From a bacterium (GTDB lineage Bacteria; UBA8248), in NCBI GenBank assembly GCA_965199855.1, contig OZ241326.1:2211908-2275907 (forward strand): a stretch of DNA of 64,000 nt, in the 5' to 3' direction. Below are positions 515 through 63,007 of this stretch, piece by piece. A program made the position numbers and the translations under genes. A model generated the notes under the pieces. That model was not told the DNA's origin and did no database searches. It saw only the letters and a list, made by a program, of their open reading frames with translations. The first letter of the stretch is position 1. Each line of letters opens with the position of its first letter.

Positions 515-4133
<3,619 letters not shown>

Positions 4134-4259
4134 TCGATATTTCGATTGGGTTGTTGTTCTTTGATACGCCGCTATAATCGGATCGAGCCGATCCTCCAGC
4201 TCGCTTCGGCTGACCAGAAACGCCTTGTTTTCATCGCAGGACCGGCGAAGATTGAAGCC

Positions 4260-6392
4260 TCATGTCCCTCCCGCCTCGACGGCTTCAATGAAGCGGGCGA
4301 GCTCCTCGCCGATGCCTTCCAGCTCGTTATTGTCTGTCGGTCTCCCCGCGGCGTCATAGCCGATATCCCCGGCTACCGCCATGAATACCGGAGAATCGCC
4401 CAATACGCTTCGCTTTCGCTCCGCATATTCCCGCTCCATGGTTTCCCGGAGCGCATCGATTTTTCCCCGGCATTCGGCGCCGACCCGCTTTTTCCATTCC
4501 CTATAGTCTTCGGACAGGCTCAACGCTTTGCCTTCCAGCCCTTCCGGATTGTCAAAGCCTCTGAGTTCCTTGATCCGCCGCTTCTTCTCCGCGTCAATCT
4601 CCCGCAACTGCTCCGGAAAATCATGCTCTTCCCTGATTTCGTCCCGTATCTCCGCTTTCCGGTTGCGGATCTCGGCGGTTGCTTCCGAAGTCCGCTTTTT
4701 CAGGAACAGCACCGAGGTTTTCACCCCCGCCCCTTTCGCCTGAAACGCGGTTTGGGGCATGGACGCCACCGCCACGAGGCGGAAATTCTCCTCCATGCCC
4801 TCCCGCGCGTATTGGAGGCTGGAGTTGGTCAGGATGCCGTCGGGTATGACGATCGCCAGATAGCCTCCCTCGGCGAGAAACCTGTGGCATTGCTCGATAA
4901 ACAGAATTTCGGAGCTCTGGCTGTCCCGGACTGTTTCCTTGCTCTTCGGGTTCAGCCAGTCGGCTTTCTTGAGCGCGTAATCGTAGTGGCGCATGTAGGC
5001 TTGCTCGGTTCGCTTGATCTGGGAGCCGAACGGCGGATTCGTGATGATGAAGTGGAAGCGTCCGTAAACGAATCCGTTGTTTCTCGTGAGAGAAAAAATA
5101 TCGTCAGCGGACATCAGCCCGTCGGCGGCGATCACGTTCGTATGGCCGTCATCGTGGAGAATCATGTTCATCTTGGCGGTTCTGGCGATTCGATCGTTGA
5201 TTTCGATGCCGAATATGTTTTTTTCCGCGAAGCTGCGCCAGTGCCTGTCATAGTCTCTTGATTCCGCCAGATCTGCTTCAAAATTCGGATAGTATTCACT
5301 CGCCTGCCGCCTGACCTTGTCAAGCGCGTGAAGCAGAAACCCGCCGCTGCCGCAGGAGGTATCCAGAACCAGCGAGTCATTGGTTATCGGCAGCGCGTCC
5401 ACGATGAACTTCACGATGGGGCGAGGGGTGAAGAACTGCCCGAACTCTCCACGAAAATAAGAACCCATGAAAGTTTCAAAGGCCTTGCCCCTGCTGTCCA
5501 GATCGGTTTTTCCAAAATCGACGCCTTCCAGATAGCCGACGACGGTGCGCAACTTTTCGCAGCCGAGGCGAATATCCTCCTGAAAGACTTCGGGGTCTTT
5601 TTGCCGCCCCTCGGCATACAGGGCGCGGACGCGCTTTTGCAGTCCCTTGTTCGTCTTGTCTTCCGTGCTTTCGGTGAACACCTGAAAATCGTAGGGTTCC
5701 CCCTTTCTCCTGGGCTTTTTCTCGTCCCACATTTTGCAGAAAATCAGCTTGTTCAACTCGTCGAAGGCTAGCGAGGGGTCGAGTTGCCCACCCCCCCAAA
5801 GCGCCTGATGCGCCTGTCTGAACCTTCTCGTCAGCGCGTCTTCCGTTATGGCTTCGAGCTCGAACAGCCTTTGTCCGTTGGCGGAACCCCCGCCCCGGGC
5901 GTATTTGAACCTGGCGAGCCGGCTGACGCCGTATTGCGGGATATCGGGAATGGGCAAGCGCTTCTTCGGCTCTTTTTCGGGAATCTCGAAGCAGGCGTCT
6001 TTTATTCGGGAGGTTACCCAGAAATACCTGGCCCGGACTGTTCCCGTGGCGGCGTAGCTGAAAGCCTGGGCGACGGCCTGCTCGAACTCGGCTTCGGAGA
6101 CGTCCTCCGCCTTGCACTCGACGACGATATGGGCGGATTCACGCTCATCGTCGTTATAGACGATAATATCCGCCTCTCTGGTGTCCGCGCCGATTTTTAC
6201 CGGAACGAACTGCTCTATGCGCTCCGGGGCGTAGCGATAAACCAGAACCAGTTTGAGGAACGTCTCCGCCTGGACGGACTCTTCCGGCCGCGCGTAATTT
6301 CGCCTCTTGCCCTGGCGAACGTAGGTGATGTATTTCCCGTCGTCATCAAACGCGATCAAGCCTTTGTCTATTCCTTCGCGCAACAGATCCAT
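4260..6392 (-). CDS. hsdM: N6-adenine DNA methyltransferase (HsdM-like) with N-terminal HsdR_N / PD-(D/E)XK-like domain
   Basis: 710 aa. Has SAM motif I VLDTSCGSGGFL and catalytic motif IV IITNPPFG. The extra ~170-aa N-terminus carries a D...E-x-K signature (EADIIVY...HIVVECK). Directly upstream of hsdS and in the same reading frame. AT-richer than the flanks. Confidence 0.85.
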   Translation of the reverse strand: MDLLREGIDKGLIAFDDDGKYITYVRQGKRRNYARPEESVQAETFLKLVLVYRYAPERIEQFVPVKIGADTREADIIVYNDDERESAHIVVECKAEDVSEAEFEQAVAQAFSYAATGTVRARYFWVTSRIKDACFEIPEKEPKKRLPIPDIPQYGVSRLARFKYARGGGSANGQRLFELEAITEDALTRRFRQAHQALWGGGQLDPSLAFDELNKLIFCKMWDEKKPRRKGEPYDFQVFTESTEDKTNKGLQKRVRALYAEGRQKDPEVFQEDIRLGCEKLRTVVGYLEGVDFGKTDLDSRGKAFETFMGSYFRGEFGQFFTPRPIVKFIVDALPITNDSLVLDTSCGSGGFLLHALDKVRRQASEYYPNFEADLAESRDYDRHWRSFAEKNIFGIEINDRIARTAKMNMILHDDGHTNVIAADGLMSADDIFSLTRNNGFVYGRFHFIITNPPFGSQIKRTEQAYMRHYDYALKKADWLNPKSKETVRDSQSSEILFIEQCHRFLAEGGYLAIVIPDGILTNSSLQYAREGMEENFRLVAVASMPQTAFQAKGAGVKTSVLFLKKRTSEATAEIRNRKAEIRDEIREEHDFPEQLREIDAEKKRRIKELRGFDNPEGLEGKALSLSEDYREWKKRVGAECRGKIDALRETMEREYAERKRSVLGDSPVFMAVAGDIGYDAAGRPTDNNELEGIGEELARFIEAVEAGGT

Positions 6393-6742: not shown

Positions 6743-7573
6743 ATGACGCGCCCCGCCAGACGAAGGCTCGGCCAGCATTTCCTGCACGAGAAGAGGTATC
6801 TCTCGCAAATCATTGATTTGGCTGAAATCGCGCCTGGAGAGGACGTGCTGGAAATCGGCGTCGGCGAAGGGGCGCTCACGCGCTTCCTCCTTGACGCGGG
6901 CGCGCGCGTCCACGGCGTGGAGATAGACGACGCGCTCATCCCCCCCCTGCGCTCCCTCGAAGCCGCCAGCGAGCGCTTCCGCCTGATTCACGCAGACGCC
7001 CTCGCCCTCGACTACGACGCGTTGCCCGCCAGGATGAAGGTGGCGGCGAACCTTCCCTACCAAATCGCATCAGGCATCATCCTGCAACTCATTGAAAAAT
7101 ATGAGAAATTTCCCTTCATGATCCTCATGGCGCAGCGCGAGGCGGGCGAGCGGATCTGCGCGGAGCCGGGCGGGAAGGACTACGGCGCGCTCACCCTGCG
7201 GGTGGGCTACCGCTTCGAGGCGCGGCTGTGCGGGACGGTTCCTCCGGGGGCGTTCCGCCCCCCGCCCGGGGTGGATTCCGCCCTCGTCCGCCTCAAGGCG
7301 AGAGAAGCCCCCCAGGTGGAGGTGGGGGACGAGAGCCTCTATTTCCGGCTCATCCGGGCGGGCTTCGCCCACCGCAGAAAGACGCTGCTCAACAATCTCA
7401 GGTCGCTGGATTCGGGCGGGCTTGAGAAAGGAGAGCGCCGGGGCTTGCGCCCGGAGGACTGGCGAGGTCTCCTCGAAGGGCTGGGAATCGACCCCGGAAG
7501 GCGCGCCGAGACCCTCTCGGCCGGCGAGTTCGCGCGAATCGCCCGCGCCGTCGAGTCGAGGGGGCGGCCTTGA
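6743..7573 (+). CDS. rsmA: 16S rRNA (adenine1518/1519-N6)-dimethyltransferase
   Basis: 276 aa. Contains RRRLGQHFL and VLEIGVGEGALT (SAM motif), plus NLPYQIAS, all typical of KsgA/RsmA. Confidence 0.92.
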   Translation: MTRPARRRLGQHFLHEKRYLSQIIDLAEIAPGEDVLEIGVGEGALTRFLLDAGARVHGVEIDDALIPPLRSLEAASERFRLIHADALALDYDALPARMKVAANLPYQIASGIILQLIEKYEKFPFMILMAQREAGERICAEPGGKDYGALTLRVGYRFEARLCGTVPPGAFRPPPGVDSALVRLKAREAPQVEVGDESLYFRLIRAGFAHRRKTLLNNLRSLDSGGLEKGERRGLRPEDWRGLLEGLGIDPGRRAETLSAGEFARIARAVESRGRP

Positions 7574-8475
7574 GCGGCGGAATCCTGATCTACCGCATGG
7601 GGGCGTTCGGGGACACGCTCCTGCTCGCGCCGCTGCTCGGACGCCTGCGGGAGGCGCGCCCGGGCGTTCGCCTCACCCTGGCGGCGAACCCCGCATACGC
7701 CGCTCCCCTGCTCGACGCGGGGCTGGCGGAGGAGATTCTGGACGGGGGCGCGCCTCCCTTTCATCTTCTCTATGACGGGCGGCCATCGGAGAACGACGCG
7801 CTCGCCCGGCTCATCCGGCGGCATGACGCCTGCGTCTTCTACACCGCCGACCGCTCGGGAGAGCTGGCGAGGCGGCTGCGTTCATCGAGGCCGGAGAAAT
7901 GCCGCGTCCACCCCCCTTTCCCGCCGGAGGGGGAGAGCGTTCACGTCTGCGCGTGGATGACGCGGGCGTGGCCCGGCCTGAGCGCGTCCGCGCCTGAAAG
8001 CATGAAGCTGACGCCTTCGGAAAACAGCCTGTCTGAGGCGGACAACCTATTGAAAAAAAATGGCTTGCGACCTTCCCGCTTCTTCATCCTCCATCCCGGC
8101 GGAGGGGGCGAGAGAAAATGGCCGCCGCCCGACGTTCTCGCGGAGATGGGCCGCGCCCTCGCGCGCGAAACGGGGCATCAGCCGGTCGTGGCGGAAGGGC
8201 CGGCGGATTCGATCGCCAGCGAGAATTTCCAGAAGCTCCCGGGCGCGCCCCTGCCGGTCCTCAGGGAAACGCCGCCCGTCATCCTGGGCGCCCTGCTCTC
8301 GAGGTCGTCCGGGTATATCGGGGGCGATTCCGGCGTCTCCCATCTCGCCTCTCTCTACGCGCCGCGCGCCTCGATACTGTATGGCCCCCATTCCGACATG
8401 AGGGTCTGGCGACCGATAGGCTCCCGAACGCGCTGCCTGTCCTGGGAGGCGGAGCGGAGGAGCGCGTTCGGGTGA
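7570..8475 (+). CDS. glycosyltransferase family 9 (heptosyltransferase-like)
   Basis: 301 aa. The TTG start overlaps the rsmA stop (TTGA). N-terminus ILIYRMGAFGDTLLLAPLL and ILHPGGGGERKWP resemble the GT9 ADP-heptose transferase pattern. Confidence 0.75.
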   Translation: MSGGILIYRMGAFGDTLLLAPLLGRLREARPGVRLTLAANPAYAAPLLDAGLAEEILDGGAPPFHLLYDGRPSENDALARLIRRHDACVFYTADRSGELARRLRSSRPEKCRVHPPFPPEGESVHVCAWMTRAWPGLSASAPESMKLTPSENSLSEADNLLKKNGLRPSRFFILHPGGGGERKWPPPDVLAEMGRALARETGHQPVVAEGPADSIASENFQKLPGAPLPVLRETPPVILGALLSRSSGYIGGDSGVSHLASLYAPRASILYGPHSDMRVWRPIGSRTRCLSWEAERRSAFG

Positions 8476-51873: not shown

Positions 51874-52680
51874 ATGCAGGATCGATACACGGGCGACGTA
51901 GGGGATTTCGGCAAATACGGACTGCTCCGCGCCATCACCCGGCCCGGGATTACGAAAAAAGACGGCCAGGAGACATTGAGCCTCGGCGTCGTGTGGTATC
52001 GCCATCCCGACGAGAAAGACACGAACGACGGCGAGCATATCGACTATCTCGGCCCTTCCGGGCGCGAGAATTTTCGGAAGTGCGATCCTGAACTATATGA
52101 TTGCCTGAGCAAGATCGTCAGATATGACTCCAAAACCAGGAAGGCAAAGGGTCGCAGGGCGATATCGAAGATCGAGAATAGCGAGATACTCGGTTCGCAA
52201 ACTCGTTTTTTCGGCAGGCGATGTCCTTATGACGCGGATGCTCGTAAAAAATGGCGCCGAGAAGCGTTGAACGAAATGAAGGGATGCGATTTGGTATTCC
52301 TCGACCCGGACAACGGGCTCAGGTGCAACCAGAACCTTGACAGCGGAAAACACGCCTACCTTGAGGAAGTCTTGAGCTTTGTTCTTCAAGGCAGCGCAGT
52401 AATTTTCTATCATCATCCTGACAGGTGAAAAACGCATAATGAACAAATCAGAAAACTCGCTCAATATATTGCTCGCAAGTTGGATAAAAATCACCGCGTA
52501 TCCGCTTTCCGTTACCGCAGAGGGAACTCCCGGGCGTTTTTCATCATTTGGCCGCGGGATCGGCAGAAAGTATTCAAGCCCCGCATGAAGGCGATTCGTG
52601 ATGGCCTGTGGGGCCGGGAATGTCGCTTTGAACTCACGGCGCGTTCCATCTCCGGCAAAAGCAGGGGCAACCCGAGTTAG
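51874..52680 (+). pseudogene. AT-rich gene of unknown function interrupted by one in-frame TGA (52426-52428)
   Basis: Track ORFs 51874..52428 and 52480..52680 share one frame, with only TGA plus 17 sense codons between them (…VIFYHHPDR-*-KTHNEQIRKLAQYIARKLDKNHRVSAFRY…). A strong SD (AGGAGG) precedes ATG 51874. The region is visibly lower in GC than comF and pdxA on either side. Confidence 0.6.
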
Positions 52681-58863: not shown

Positions 58864-60255
58864 ATGCTCGACCTCAAGCCTCCCGACGCGGCGATCGAAA
58901 TCCTCCGCGCCCTGCGCGCCGCGGGCCACCGGGCGCTTCTCGCGGGAGGCTGCGTGCGCGACGCCCTCCTCGGCCGCGAGCCCAGGGACTGGGACATCGC
59001 CACGGACGCGGGCCCCGAAGCCGCGCGGACCCTCTTCGAGAAGACCGTGGCCGTGGGCGCGCGGTTCGGCGTCTCGCGCGTCCTGCTGGACGGCCGGGAG
59101 TTCGAGGTGGCGCAGTTCCGGCGGGACGGCGCCTACGAGGACGGCAGGCGGCCCGCCTCGGTTCTTCCCACCAGCGAGGAGGAGGACGCGAGGCGGCGCG
59201 ACTTCACCATCAACGGAATGTTCTACGACCCGTTCGAGCGCCGCGCGCTCGACTACGTCGGCGGCCTGCGCGACCTCGACGGAAAAATCATCCGCGCCAT
59301 CGGGGACCCGAACCTCCGCTTCCGGGAAGATCATCTGCGGATGATGCGGGCGGCGCGCTTCTCGGCGCGGTTCGGCTTCGACATCGAGCCGGCGACCGCC
59401 GCCGCCGTCCGCGCCAACGCCGGGCGCATCTCCAGAATAAGCCCCGAGAGGATTCAGGAGGAGCTGACGGCGATGCTCACCGGGGAGAATCCCCATCGCG
59501 CCCTCGCCGCGCTGGATTCGCTCGGACTCCTCGAATGCGTCCTGCCCGAGGTCGCCGCCATGAAGGGGGTGGCGCAGCCGCCGGAATTCCACCCCGAGGG
59601 CGACGTCTGGACGCACGTCCTCCTCATGCTGGCGCTCATGCGCGCCCCCTCGCCCGCGCTCGCCTGGGGCGTCCTGCTCCACGACGTCGGAAAGCCCGCC
59701 ACCTACGCGGAGGCCGACCGCATCCGCTTCAACGGGCACGACAGGGCGGGGGCGGAGATGAGCGCGAACGTCTGCGGCAGGCTGCGCATGTCCGGCGCGC
59801 GCGCGTCGAGGATTCGGGAGCTGGTCGCCAACCACATGCGCTTCATGCGCGTGGAGAAGATGCGGGAGAGCCGCCTGAAGCGGCTGCTCCGCGAGCCCTG
59901 CTTCGAGGAGCTCCTGGAGCTGCACCGCCTCGACTGCCTCGCCAGCCACGGCGATTTGAGAACCCATGAATTCTGCGTCCGGAAACGGCGCGCGCTCCGG
60001 GAGGAGGCCCTCCGCCCGCCGCGCCTGCTGGACGGCCGCGAACTGATGAAAATGGGCTATCCGCCGGGGCCGGGGCTGGGGGAGATTCTCGCCGCCATCG
60101 AGGACGCGCAGCTCGAGGGCCGCGTCTCCACCGCCGCGCAGGCCAGGGATTTCACGAGGCGAAACTTCGCCCTTCCGGAGACTCGCCCCTCCGGAAAGCC
60201 GCGCGCTCCCGCGCGGGCCGACCCGCCTCCCGGCGACCGCGGGGAGCGGCCATGA
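58864..60255 (+). CDS. cca: CCA tRNA nucleotidyltransferase (pol-beta NTase + HD domain)
   Basis: ORF 58840..60255; I prefer ATG 58864. LLAGGCVRDALLG...DWDIAT (NTase motif), FRRDG...RRDFTINGMFYD, and the HD region VLLHDVGKP. Confidence 0.85.
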   Translation: MLDLKPPDAAIEILRALRAAGHRALLAGGCVRDALLGREPRDWDIATDAGPEAARTLFEKTVAVGARFGVSRVLLDGREFEVAQFRRDGAYEDGRRPASVLPTSEEEDARRRDFTINGMFYDPFERRALDYVGGLRDLDGKIIRAIGDPNLRFREDHLRMMRAARFSARFGFDIEPATAAAVRANAGRISRISPERIQEELTAMLTGENPHRALAALDSLGLLECVLPEVAAMKGVAQPPEFHPEGDVWTHVLLMLALMRAPSPALAWGVLLHDVGKPATYAEADRIRFNGHDRAGAEMSANVCGRLRMSGARASRIRELVANHMRFMRVEKMRESRLKRLLREPCFEELLELHRLDCLASHGDLRTHEFCVRKRRALREEALRPPRLLDGRELMKMGYPPGPGLGEILAAIEDAQLEGRVSTAAQARDFTRRNFALPETRPSGKPRAPARADPPPGDRGERP

Positions 60256-60785
60256 CGCGAACCTCCATCATGACGGCGCGCGAGCTCGAAATCTCCCTCG
60301 GAAGAATCGCTTCCGAGATGGCGGAGGCGCGCGCGGCGGACGCGGGTCTCGCCCTCGTCGGAATCCTCACGCGCGGCGAGCCGCTGGCGCGGAGGCTCCG
60401 CAGGCGCATTCAGGAGCTCGAGAACGTCGCGCCCGCCCTCGGCGCCCTCGACATCGGAATTCACCGCGACGACGCGGGACACCCCGCGAAGGGGCGCGGC
60501 TTCGAGCCGACGCTCATCGACTTCGACATCACCGACCGCCACGTCTTCCTGGTGGACGACGTGTTCTTCACGGGCCGAACCGCGCGCGCCGCCCTGGACG
60601 CCCTGATGGAGCTGGGGCGGCCGAAGCGCATCTGGCTCGCCGTCCTGATAGATCGGGGACACCGGGAGCTGCCCTTCCGCCCCGACTTCATCGGCAAGAG
60701 CGTGCCCACCTCGCTCGATGAGCGCGTCCAGGTGCGGATGCGGGAGGTGGACGGCGAGGACGGGGTATGGCTCGCGAAAGGATGA
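60252..60785 (+). CDS. second PyrR/uracil phosphoribosyltransferase paralog
   Basis: 177 aa. LALVGILTRGEPLARRL...HVFLVDDVFFTGRTARAALDAL...AVLIDRGHRELPFRPDFIGK. The ATG overlaps the cca stop (ATGA). No leader or attenuator. Confidence 0.85.
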   Translation: MTRTSIMTARELEISLGRIASEMAEARAADAGLALVGILTRGEPLARRLRRRIQELENVAPALGALDIGIHRDDAGHPAKGRGFEPTLIDFDITDRHVFLVDDVFFTGRTARAALDALMELGRPKRIWLAVLIDRGHRELPFRPDFIGKSVPTSLDERVQVRMREVDGEDGVWLAKG

Positions 60786-60854
60786 GCCGCTGCGGGGGAG
60801 AGGCGGCCGCGCTTCCCCAGGTTGCCTTTTTTATATTTTGAAGTCCAGGTCGAT

Positions 60855-60962
60855 TTACGCACCCTCAATGCCCTGCAACCTGTCTCGCAGGGCCGCTCGC
60901 TGTTCAGGGGACATAGCCGCCGCTAACTTCTTGAATTCATGTATTTCTTTATCCTTTTTCAT
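60855..60962 (-). CDS. possible 35-aa small ORF at the end of the AT-rich islet
   Basis: Own translation: MKKDKEIHEFKKLAAAMSPEQRAALRDRLQGIEGA*. It overlaps the 3' end of the 157-aa gene by 14 nt and has no clear SD. Too short for the ORF track. Confidence 0.25.
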   Translation of the reverse strand: MKKDKEIHEFKKLAAAMSPEQRAALRDRLQGIEGA

Positions 60963-61422
60963 CCGAATAGGGCATTCTATCGAATCTCTTCAGTTCGACG
61001 TTGATCTTATCAATACGGAGGCAGTCTCCGCGCGATCTGACCATAAACTGATACTGATTTTCTCCTCCTAGTGGAGCTCGAGAAAATTCGTTTCTCGCAT
61101 TTACGAATGGAGCCAAACGTCCGCAGAACGCCTCAAGACTCCGCGTTTTAAGCTGGGCGATGACGAGCCTTCCCTCAATACGCGCTTGTTCTTCATCTTT
61201 CATCATCTCTTCTGGTATGCCGTGCCAATCCTTCTTTCCACCCAGAACCCACCAGTTTCGGCCTGATTCATCTTGCAACCACTTTTGGCGTTTCCCTACT
61301 GGCGTCAGGGTGACGTCGAATTTTGCGTGAATAGCATCTATGACGGGCCGCCTATCAAAATTGTTGAATTTTTCCGATGACTTCTTCATGCTTTCCTCTC
61401 CCAAGCGGCTTGAAAGCTCCAT
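60949..61422 (-). CDS. hypothetical protein (157 aa), AT-rich islet
   Basis: AGGAGGA SD lies 7 nt before ATG 61422, two nt after the stop of the upstream gene. Lys/Glu-rich with a WWVLGGKKDWHGIPEEMM segment. No recognisable family. Confidence 0.6.
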   Translation of the reverse strand: MELSSRLGEESMKKSSEKFNNFDRRPVIDAIHAKFDVTLTPVGKRQKWLQDESGRNWWVLGGKKDWHGIPEEMMKDEEQARIEGRLVIAQLKTRSLEAFCGRLAPFVNARNEFSRAPLGGENQYQFMVRSRGDCLRIDKINVELKRFDRMPYSDEKG

Positions 61423-61424
61423 CG

Positions 61425-61955
61425 CTAGTCCTCCTGTCTCTCTTCGTCCTCCTCTCCGGATTGATTGAGGGTCGCCGCGTCCAGCCCCGCTCCCAGGTTG
61501 TCGGCCAGCTCACCCCAGCCGTCCATAAAATCTCTTGCATCGTTGAACACGACGAAGGCAGCGCCGCCAGCCTCATAGAGCTGAGGAGCCGCCGCGAGTA
61601 GAGCGGCATCATCAAGGCTGGATATGTTGTCCGCCACAATCCGACCGACTGGCCCTTGAGTGTCGCAGACGGAATAGCTGGCCCCATTTTTGACGGGGAT
61701 CCAGCTCCGGGGCGGCCGTATGGATCGGCTCAACAGGACGCCGAACGCGAGCTTGGCCAGCACCGGAATCTTCTTGCCCGGCTTGAACCAACCGTTTATA
61801 GTGGTTTCGGGCACATCCAGAACCGCGCTGAGATTGCGTTGCCAGCCGCGTCGCCCGTATCTCCGCTCGAAAGCGGACCTGAGATCCATATCTTTCACAT
61901 AGTTGGTCAGCCCTTCCCGGAAATCAGCGTCGGCGATCATTCTCAAGTTGCCCAT
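61425..61955 (-). CDS. hypothetical protein (176 aa) with probable N-terminal HTH and acidic tail, AT-rich islet
   Basis: WQRNLSAVLDVPETTINGWFKPGKKIP looks like a Cro/C1-type HTH. The C-terminal DDAALLAAAPQLYEA resembles the AAAPELLEA motif common in small phage proteins. The tail reads EEDEERQED. An AT-rich upstream region contains TTGACA (62029-62024, minus strand). Confidence 0.6.
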   Translation of the reverse strand: MGNLRMIADADFREGLTNYVKDMDLRSAFERRYGRRGWQRNLSAVLDVPETTINGWFKPGKKIPVLAKLAFGVLLSRSIRPPRSWIPVKNGASYSVCDTQGPVGRIVADNISSLDDAALLAAAPQLYEAGGAAFVVFNDARDFMDGWGELADNLGAGLDAATLNQSGEEDEERQED

Positions 61956-62101
61956 TCCATCAATCTCCCGCGTAAAATTACGAATCTCATTCTAAAAACT
62001 CTTGTAATACACGAAATTAAGTTTGTCAAGAATTAAAATAACATTTATTTAAGGAATTTCGGGTTTCAAGGGATTCCCCGGAATGAAATCAAAGATTTCC
62101 C

Positions 62102-63007
62102 CTACGCGCTCGCCCAGGCGATCATGATCGTGGCGAAGAACAGCAGGGCCGCCCCCGCCCACTTCTGCCAGGTCAGCCGCTCCTCCTCCCCCAGCCAGAC
62201 GCGCGCCAACGCGAGCGAGAACAGCGGCGCCGTATAGCTCAGGGGCATGACGACGAACACCTCCCCATACTGAAACGCCGAGAAGAACGCCAGATAGGCC
62301 GCGGCGTTGACGGCGCCCGCGACGAGGAGCCACCTCAGCCCGGCCGCGTCCATCCGGAAGCGCTCGGCGGCGGGCAGGGCGGGAGCGAGCAGCAGGAGCG
62401 TGGGCAACGAGACGGCGTTGGCGATGGTCGCGCCGATGAGGGGGTCGCCGTAGAGGAGCAGCCCGTAGCGCCGCAGGGTGGAGGCGAGCGCCATGACGAG
62501 GGCGTGAAGCAGGGGGAAGATCATGTGCGCGCGCCGCCAGTCGGCGTCTCCTTCCGGCTTCATGGTCAGGAACGCGCAGCCCGCCATCACGAAAAAAATG
62601 GCGATCCACGCCGCCGCGCCCGGCTCCTCTCCGAGCCACGCGATGGCCGCCAGGGTCGAGAGAAACGGGGTAATCGTCACCAGGGGCATGGTGCGGCCGA
62701 CGCCTATCGTCCTGAAGCCCAGAAAGAGGAGGAAGCGGCTGAACCCGGGCGCCAGGACGCCGCCGACGACGAACCAGAGCGCCGCCCGGGGCGAGAGCGC
62801 CCCCCAGTCCGAGAAGGCGAGAGAGAGGCCCCCCAGAAGCGGAATCCCCAGCCCCAGGCCGATGAGGGCGCCCACGTAGGGCGAGGTTCCCCCCAGCCCC
62901 TTGCGCGCGACGACGCTGAAGACGGCGAACAGAACCGAGGACGCCAGGCTCAGGCCCACGGCGAGATAATGCTCCAAGGCGTCCCCCTGCGGCGCGCGGG
63001 CGTCCAA
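62102..63007 (-). CDS. DMT-superfamily (EamA-type) transporter
   Basis: 301 aa with about ten hydrophobic helices in two similar halves. Confidence 0.85.
   Translation of the reverse strand: MDARAPQGDALEHYLAVGLSLASSVLFAVFSVVARKGLGGTSPYVGALIGLGLGIPLLGGLSLAFSDWGALSPRAALWFVVGGVLAPGFSRFLLFLGFRTIGVGRTMPLVTITPFLSTLAAIAWLGEEPGAAAWIAIFFVMAGCAFLTMKPEGDADWRRAHMIFPLLHALVMALASTLRRYGLLLYGDPLIGATIANAVSLPTLLLLAPALPAAERFRMDAAGLRWLLVAGAVNAAAYLAFFSAFQYGEVFVVMPLSYTAPLFSLALARVWLGEEERLTWQKWAGAALLFFATIMIAWASA

Follow-up and report, generated by a model that had tools for sequence, protein, structure and literature searches.

A 64-kb stretch of contig OZ241326.1 (positions 2,211,908 to 2,275,907; hereafter the window), from a bacterium of the GTDB lineage UBA8248 whose genome has a guanine plus cytosine (GC) content of about 70%, carries a small low-GC cassette of probably two genes, A and B, arranged as a minus-strand operon between an EamA transporter gene and pyrR. 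Coordinates in the window follow the numbering of this stretch, position 1 being its first letter, and A, B and C are the labels of the open reading frames (ORFs) of the insert. The best explanation, to which we give an even chance, is that the cassette is a horizontally acquired, autoregulated pair of the type II toxin-antitoxin-like or defence kind, with A as regulator and neutraliser and B as effector. The basic Xre-type helix-turn-helix (HTH) of A would bind palindromes in its own promoter and repress the operon, and its strongly acidic C-terminal part would bind and restrain the basic protein encoded by the next gene, whose translation is coupled to that of A. B would be the effector, interchangeable with MazF and DUF4258 proteins in the slot downstream of A. 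The B of the window has lost a C-terminal helical tail, whose remnant is the ORF C of 35 amino acids (aa).

Neither A nor B is a chance ORF, as their homologs indicate. A is conserved in 53 homolog clusters (98% down to 44% identity), and B homologs form 21 clusters by word search and 252 representative clusters by exhaustive profile search. Both protein families are unannotated and come only from uncultured bacteria, the source annotations of the homologs being all unnamed or 'hypothetical protein'. A lies directly upstream of B in about nine lineages and in unrelated contexts (L001, L002, L011, L038, L041/42 and the clade of the window), two of the lineages encoding A and B as a single fused ORF (L022 and P0077). 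In L001 and L002 the two genes share ATGA overlaps of 4 nucleotides (nt). The hosts of the pair are all metagenome-assembled genomes, from Alpha- and Gammaproteobacteria, Defluviicoccus and Ca. Entotheonella, and in these high-GC genomes the pair stands out as low-GC. The sequence-only reading that preceded this analysis had taken the insert for foreign-looking DNA, which its low GC and the presence of the same pair in unrelated contexts bear out; the homologs of A and B also answer the concern that these ORFs might be spurious.

The slot downstream of A is filled elsewhere by other genes. In L015 it holds a PemK/MazF toxin gene (Pfam E 2.7e-12) that overlaps A by 4 nt, and in L012 and L019 a DUF4258-like gene (E 3.7e-5 and 5e-3, respectively), with no other antitoxin candidate present in L019. 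In L016, L017 and L039, A has no such partner and is followed by unrelated Sel1 or ankyrin genes. The toxin-antitoxin or defence explanation gains support because of these PemK/MazF and DUF4258-like partners. Between A proteins that have different partners the identity is 81-83%, higher than between some that share B; the swaps are therefore recent and the folded domains of A do not track the partner. Several B homologs are moreover fused to, or lie behind, an 'antitoxin-type' N-terminus resembling ribbon-helix-helix proteins (L025, P0089, P0136, P0078). These antitoxin-like fusions, those of other B homologs to HARE-HTH or DndB-like N-termini, the A-B fusions, the tight coupling, the recurring adjacency, the recent swaps, the Xre HTH fold of A and the promoter palindrome described below all count in favour of a toxin-antitoxin or defence pair. 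The regulator-plus-effector layout had earlier been held typical of toxin-antitoxin, abortive-infection or prophage-moron modules. The toxin-antitoxin and defence part of that proposal is strengthened by the exchange of B for PemK/MazF and DUF4258-like genes and by the predicted nuclease fold of B. The prophage or moron part was rejected: no relatives of A or B exist among 2.9 million viral contigs, no phage genes lie nearby, and the BFVD matches of A are not significant (E>0.03).

A consists of two domains. The N-terminal domain (about residues 1-76) is basic, with an isoelectric point (pI) of 10.6, and is helical in the AlphaFold2 model (predicted local distance difference test score, pLDDT, 76). 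Structural matches of the model identify a five-helix lambda-repressor-like fold with an HTH, i.e. the Xre/Cro (HTH_3) type, and the HTH predicted earlier at residues 38-56 coincides with the model helices 38-46 and 50-56. The C-terminal domain (about residues 85-160), modelled as three strands plus helices, is acidic (pI 4.05, net charge -13), contains the segment LLAAAPQLYEA and is followed by a disordered acidic tail. It has no match in the PDB, and a search for its remote homologs gave only fragments of A itself. The earlier remark that this segment resembles the phage-typical AAAPELLEA motif holds weakly, through weak precomputed matches to PF27050 (Phage_P22_Y8K6) of the homologs P0044, P0060 and P0061 and of P0242, a fragment with the C-terminal domain only; these matches concern homologs, the Pfam copy searched for the A of the window not containing the PF27050 model. 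B is basic (pI 9.1), and the family medians are pI 5.0 for A and 9.1 for B. This charge complementarity is counted for a relationship of effector and neutraliser.

The two genes are tightly coupled. The stop codon of A and the start codon of B are 2 nt apart, and a Shine-Dalgarno (SD) sequence, AGGAGGA (61435-61429), lies within the last codons of A, 6 nt ahead of the ATG of B. The promoter of A was left unscored by a consensus promoter scan because its -10 element lacks the final T. The palindrome CGAAWTTCG (at most one mismatch) occurs 12 times in the 1650 nt upstream of A from 11 loci and is kept in 10 of the 11; its background elsewhere is 0.25 per kb and none of 2000 shuffles reached 12, a statistic inflated because the pattern was derived from those same upstream sequences. 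The HTH of A probably binds these palindromes, which overlap its own promoter, and represses the operon.

Full-length B homologs have about 175-190 aa, and the start of B in distant homologs corresponds to an internal ATG at 61389 (M12) in the window. In the model of an intact relative, P0003 (pLDDT 85, predicted template modelling score 0.75), B is confidently predicted to have a restriction-endonuclease-like (PD-(D/E)xK) fold. The best structural match is NhoI, a methylation-dependent enzyme of the BisI family, followed in the structure search by PvuII, the fusellovirus nuclease D212, Hjc resolvases, RecU and many type II enzymes. B most likely acts on nucleic acid. By sequence, B could be linked neither to NhoI nor to a PDB chain or a Pfam family: PDB sequence searches with B returned only chance matches (TRIM71, azurin), and the hhalign comparison of the B family with NhoI was insignificant (probability 0.05%).

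The active site of NhoI is made of a helix-1 glutamate, the aspartate of a WD motif and a QVK motif (PMC11347163). When the beta2-beta3 hairpins of NhoI (IRTTEGDRQLQVKARV) and B (WLQDESGRNWWVLGGK) are matched by hand, a register that is not a superposition, the NhoI catalytic positions would fall on K47, W58 and L60 of B, and the WD and QxK motifs of the BisI family would be absent from the corresponding positions. The B positions conserved at 90% or more are only R24, L39, G62, H67, G68 and F126; D51 and K47 are conserved at about 80-90%, D51 being at the upper end with about 90%, and E/Q32 at about 87%. The strongest motif of the family is D-W-H-G-I-P (residues 65-70). Near-invariance among polar residues is limited to H67 and R24, which, judged by conservation, are the best catalytic candidates. 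An active site of B may also have been relocated.

Several observations weigh against a pair of effector and neutraliser. No (D/E/Q)xK column is conserved across 152 and 92 members of the B family, so that B, lacking the canonical motif, may be non-catalytic. Searches of Pfam, NCBIfam, PADLOC and PHROGs gave nothing significant for A, B or C nor for 92 diverse members of the B family (in PADLOC-DB v2, no family at E<=1 for A, B and C), as the sequence-only reading had anticipated in recognising no family. All three DUF4258 matches lie below the Pfam gathering score. Since the folded domains of A do not follow the identity of the partner, any specific neutralisation would depend on the short, variable acidic tail or on mimicry of charge in general. 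In L003 a canonical ExK nuclease domain is encoded upstream of B, and in P0197 one is fused to the C-terminus of B; B could serve recognition and not killing. Many B homologs lack an upstream A and some look solitary (L028, L023), which is hard to reconcile with an obligately toxic B. In the gene string at 742-2260 of L030, a gene for a 287-aa protein is followed by an overlapping 80-aa DUF4258-like gene and, 16 nt downstream, by a tail-less B homolog; this is the only context to put B in a slot that is usually an antitoxin's.

The main alternative, which we consider unlikely, is that B is a solitary restriction nuclease cutting DNA, of the BisI/PvuII structural class, which may depend on modification (type IV-like) and so need no methyltransferase. 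A would then be only a transcription factor similar to the controller (C) proteins of restriction-modification systems, timing or limiting B with no physical neutralisation. In the classical arrangement of a C protein and its restriction enzyme, the regulator gene comes first and overlaps the nuclease gene, and palindromes lie at the promoter. The cassette has this layout: the HTH gene comes first and is coupled to the gene of a nuclease-fold protein, palindromes are found at the promoter, and C proteins figure among the structural matches of A. The ranking of NhoI, PvuII and type II enzymes among the matches of B speaks for the same view, as do the fusion of B homologs to restriction-associated domains (HARE-HTH in P0124, E 1.4e-8, and a DndB-like segment in P0087), the location of some solitary B genes near integrases and the strain-level hypervariability of B, which is typical of defence genes. 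However, C proteins are small single-domain HTH dimers (about 70-100 aa, typically some 80 aa) linked to a restriction-modification gene pair, and A, at 176 aa, is twice as large and carries a further, acidic domain. A methyltransferase gene is not found next to the cassette, PADLOC yields no match, and the RNase toxins MazF and DUF4258, for which A is also the upstream gene, are not restriction enzymes. Although B is predicted to share the fold of PvuII and the BisI family (NhoI, Eco15I; PMC11347163), it has no detectable sequence relationship with them, no conserved PD...(D/E/Q)xK motif and no conserved counterparts of the E/WD/QVK residues of NhoI, and, unlike them, it ends in a tail of two helices and usually comes with a partner gene.

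The loss of the canonical motif throughout the family also speaks for a second alternative, in our view rather improbable, in which B, derived from a nuclease, binds nucleic acid without catalysis (as a sensor, an adaptor or an antitoxin-like partner) and A-B is a module that carries no toxin and has a regulatory or accessory role. The genuine ExK nuclease domains joined or adjacent to B in P0197 and L003 suggest such a recognition role, and the position of B downstream of a DUF4258-like toxin gene in L030 and the solitary B genes are in line with it. However, B fills exactly the slot of MazF and DUF4258 behind A, the pairing of a basic B with an acidic A and the A-B fusions fit an effector and its neutraliser, and the near-invariance of H67 and R24 is what a catalytic or ligand site would show. 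The alleles that lost the W-H dipeptide (see below) look moreover like loss of function of something costly.

The insert had been described as a three-ORF module, a count that has to be reduced by one: ORF C is probably not an independent gene. The intact locus L010, which reads GAT GAA GAT AAG CAA AAG GAT AAA, encodes in its protein P0003 the ORF C sequence YSDEDKQKDKKIHELKKLAAAMSPEQRAALRDRLQGIQGA in frame as a C-terminal tail of B. In the DNA alignment the alleles of the window, L004 and L007 lack 8 nt near 60958; as an effect of this deletion, B ends after ...YSDEKG and the tail falls in the +1 frame. The L009 allele independently acquired a CAA>TAA change, and its tail has also lost 20 nt. 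A programmed frameshift joining B and C was rejected on account of the 8-nt deletion relative to intact homologs, the lack of a slippery site, and the nonsense change and 20-nt deletion of L009. Two further copies of the module, on the Ca. Entotheonella chromosome OY282375.1 (L014 and L018), are both degenerate, with A truncated or fragmented and B frameshifted. In L014 an insertion sequence (IS) transposase gene (7028-8407) stands between B and its tail, and the upstream gene encodes an N6_N4 methyltransferase fused to an Mrr-like nuclease segment.

Many short contigs of one metagenome set carry the same pyrR-eamA locus and allowed a comparison within a population. Relative to the window, eamA, pyrR, cca and gene A are 98-100% identical in nucleotide sequence, and B is 84-93% identical in nucleotides and 67-82% in amino acids. 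The divergence of B begins at M12, the internal ATG that serves as start codon in distant homologs. Synonymous divergence (dS) is 0.04-0.28 in B vs 0.008-0.05 in A, and the ratio of non-synonymous to synonymous divergence (dN/dS) of B is 0.74-1.14 for most allele pairs and 2.8 for the closest pair. Across five alleles, B underwent at least eight core indel events, all in frame or compensated. Five alleles have 47 informative sites in 10 split patterns, and 503 of the 1081 site pairs fail the four-gamete test, from which it follows that the B alleles are mosaics produced by recombination. Several contigs are broken within B, a pattern to be expected from differences between strains. The excess synonymous divergence of B may stem from recombination with an older or foreign allele pool, the only candidate cause offered. 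A diversity-generating retroelement was rejected as the source of the variation: no reverse transcriptase is present, the changes are not adenine-specific and indels are many. The L007 allele (P0004) contains at about 1170-1195 a 24-nt in-frame insertion that nearly duplicates in tandem the adjoining GATGAATCAGGCCGAAAC, the segment coding for the conserved DESGRN turn.

The last 160 nt of A are 98% identical to those of L010 (L010 3-164 vs window 61588-61425), where the flanking pyrR and cca are about 87% identical; the identity of the 3' end of A across lineages suggests a recent spread or recombination of A. Two B alleles, P0004 and P0005, lost the near-invariant W-H (WH>RC), and the allele of the window retains all conserved core residues. 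Some B alleles are probably inactive in the population. An invariant A beside a B that is partly broken, truncated or deprived of its motif fits a costly effector that can be lost and a neutraliser that cannot. That the module of this genome is instead an inert, decaying remnant, B being effectively a pseudogene and A kept by chance or for an unrelated regulatory role, is very unlikely: the frameshift of B and the independent nonsense change in a sister allele, the dN/dS of most pairs, the two alleles without W-H and the fragmented, IS-interrupted Ca. Entotheonella copies speak for decay, but simple decay is contradicted because the frame is preserved (neutral decay would keep the indel events in frame with a probability of roughly (1/3)^8) and divergence is in excess (the dS of B far exceeds the neutral level of its neighbours), with every family-invariant core residue retained in the window and one allele pair showing the elevated dN/dS.

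The proposed toxin-antitoxin-like pair resembles described type II systems (HigA-, MqsA- and Xre-RES-type) in being a coupled two-gene operon with the DNA-binding protein first, in the acidic C-terminal part of the first protein that would pair with a basic second one, in palindromes overlapping the promoter, in a patchy horizontal spread and in the existence of orphan first genes. It differs from them in that neither A nor B belongs to a described toxin or antitoxin family and that the putative toxin has a predicted restriction-endonuclease-like fold without the canonical motif. The closest parallel for the exchange of partners is offered by Panacea/PanA and the HTH hubs of the NetFlax network (PMC8832971, PMC10440598), where likewise one first-gene protein is found with unrelated effectors (here B, PemK/MazF and DUF4258-like proteins) and the swaps are interleaved in the phylogeny. 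Unlike Panacea, A has no DUF4065/Panacea domain (no Pfam match), and its second domain bears a weak resemblance to Phage_P22_Y8K6; the partner types found so far number only three, in a small family from uncultured genomes only. A bolder version of the same explanation, which is speculative and to be held with considerable doubt, would make A a partner-agnostic neutraliser and sensor hub whose conserved, highly acidic P22-Y8K6-like domain mimics nucleic acid against B, MazF and DUF4258. B would be a new effector family in which the restriction-endonuclease fold serves with a non-canonical His/Arg active site, possibly an RNase, and its mosaic alleles would reflect a frequency-dependent arms race in an uncultured, possibly host-associated marine population.

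The features of the locus are given in Table 1. The GC content is 0.45-0.55 at about 60800-62100 vs 0.69-0.75 in the flanks. This low-GC insert, the ORF coordinates, the SD sequence and the TTGACA hexamer named by the sequence-only reading were all found in place, and the flanking genes proved to be of the EamA and PyrR types as it had proposed. The flanks are housekeeping genes, a gene for a CCA-adding/poly(A) polymerase also being among them. The GC-rich palindrome between the converging pyrR and B is likely a shared terminator of the two genes and marks the boundary of low GC; a terminator scan gave it no score. The absence of an integrase and of att-like repeats, remarked on earlier, was confirmed: the insert has no integrase and no flanking direct repeats, and an integrative element bounded by att repeats was rejected on the latter ground. 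A structured RNA was likewise rejected, as the Rfam search gave nothing at E<=1. Both intergenic borders of the insert (60795-60849 and 62011-62110) vary between otherwise identical strains, with a 17-nt indel (GAACGCATTGCTTTGAG) adjoining the pyrR terminator and an indel of about 20 nt upstream of the A promoter in L007. At 2501-5504 of L041/L042, the A-B pair and a 50-aa hydrophobic ORF lie beside a HigB/HigA pair and cca (PolyA_pol). The module of the window also lies beside pyrR-cca, and the region downstream of cca may be a shared insertion hot spot.

Table 1. Features of the A-B cassette and its borders in the window
Feature	Coordinates	Strand	Remark
PyrR-type phosphoribosyltransferase gene	60252-60785		E 2e-15
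GC-rich palindrome GGGGAGAGGCGGCCGCGCTTCCCC	60795..60818		between converging pyrR and B; inverted repeat I2, then T-run on + strand
ORF C	60962..60855	minus	35 aa; orphaned C-terminal helical tail of B
Gene B	61422..60949	minus	157 aa; tail-less allele
Gene A	61955..61425	minus	176 aa
Promoter/operator region (putative)	61956..62101	minus	read from sequence
SD GGGAG	61969-61965	minus	
Inverted repeat CGTAA-TT-TTACG	61982-61971	minus	leader
-10 TACAAG	62006-62001	minus	
Half-site TTAATTTCG	62020-62012	minus	inside the -35/-10 spacer
-35 TTGACA	62029-62024	minus	followed by 17-nt spacer
Operator-like palindrome CGAAATTCC	62061-62053	minus	
EamA transporter gene	62102-63007		E 7e-23

Two other low-GC segments were observed in the window. 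A second island of 47-57% GC (2841-6392, minus strand) carries restriction-modification genes, namely an HsdS-like specificity subunit (2841..4133, Methylase_S E 3e-20) and, at 4260..6392, a 710-aa protein in which an HSDR_N_2 nuclease-like N-terminus is joined to an N6 adenine methyltransferase. A 184-aa ORF (MQDRYTGDVGDFGKYGLL; 51874-52428, plus strand) lies in a pocket of 53% GC, has no Pfam match and is possibly a foreign gene.

Even if the proposed explanation were wrong, the locus would still be a clean case of a small mobile cassette. If it is right, B would represent a new effector family of about 250 representative clusters, hitherto unannotated, with a restriction-endonuclease fold that lacks the hallmark motif. 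A would be a second, small promiscuous antitoxin hub beside Panacea, which bears on how one neutraliser copes with unrelated toxins. The combination of an invariant regulator with a recombining, hypervariable effector would bear on the selection of cassettes in uncultured bacteria.

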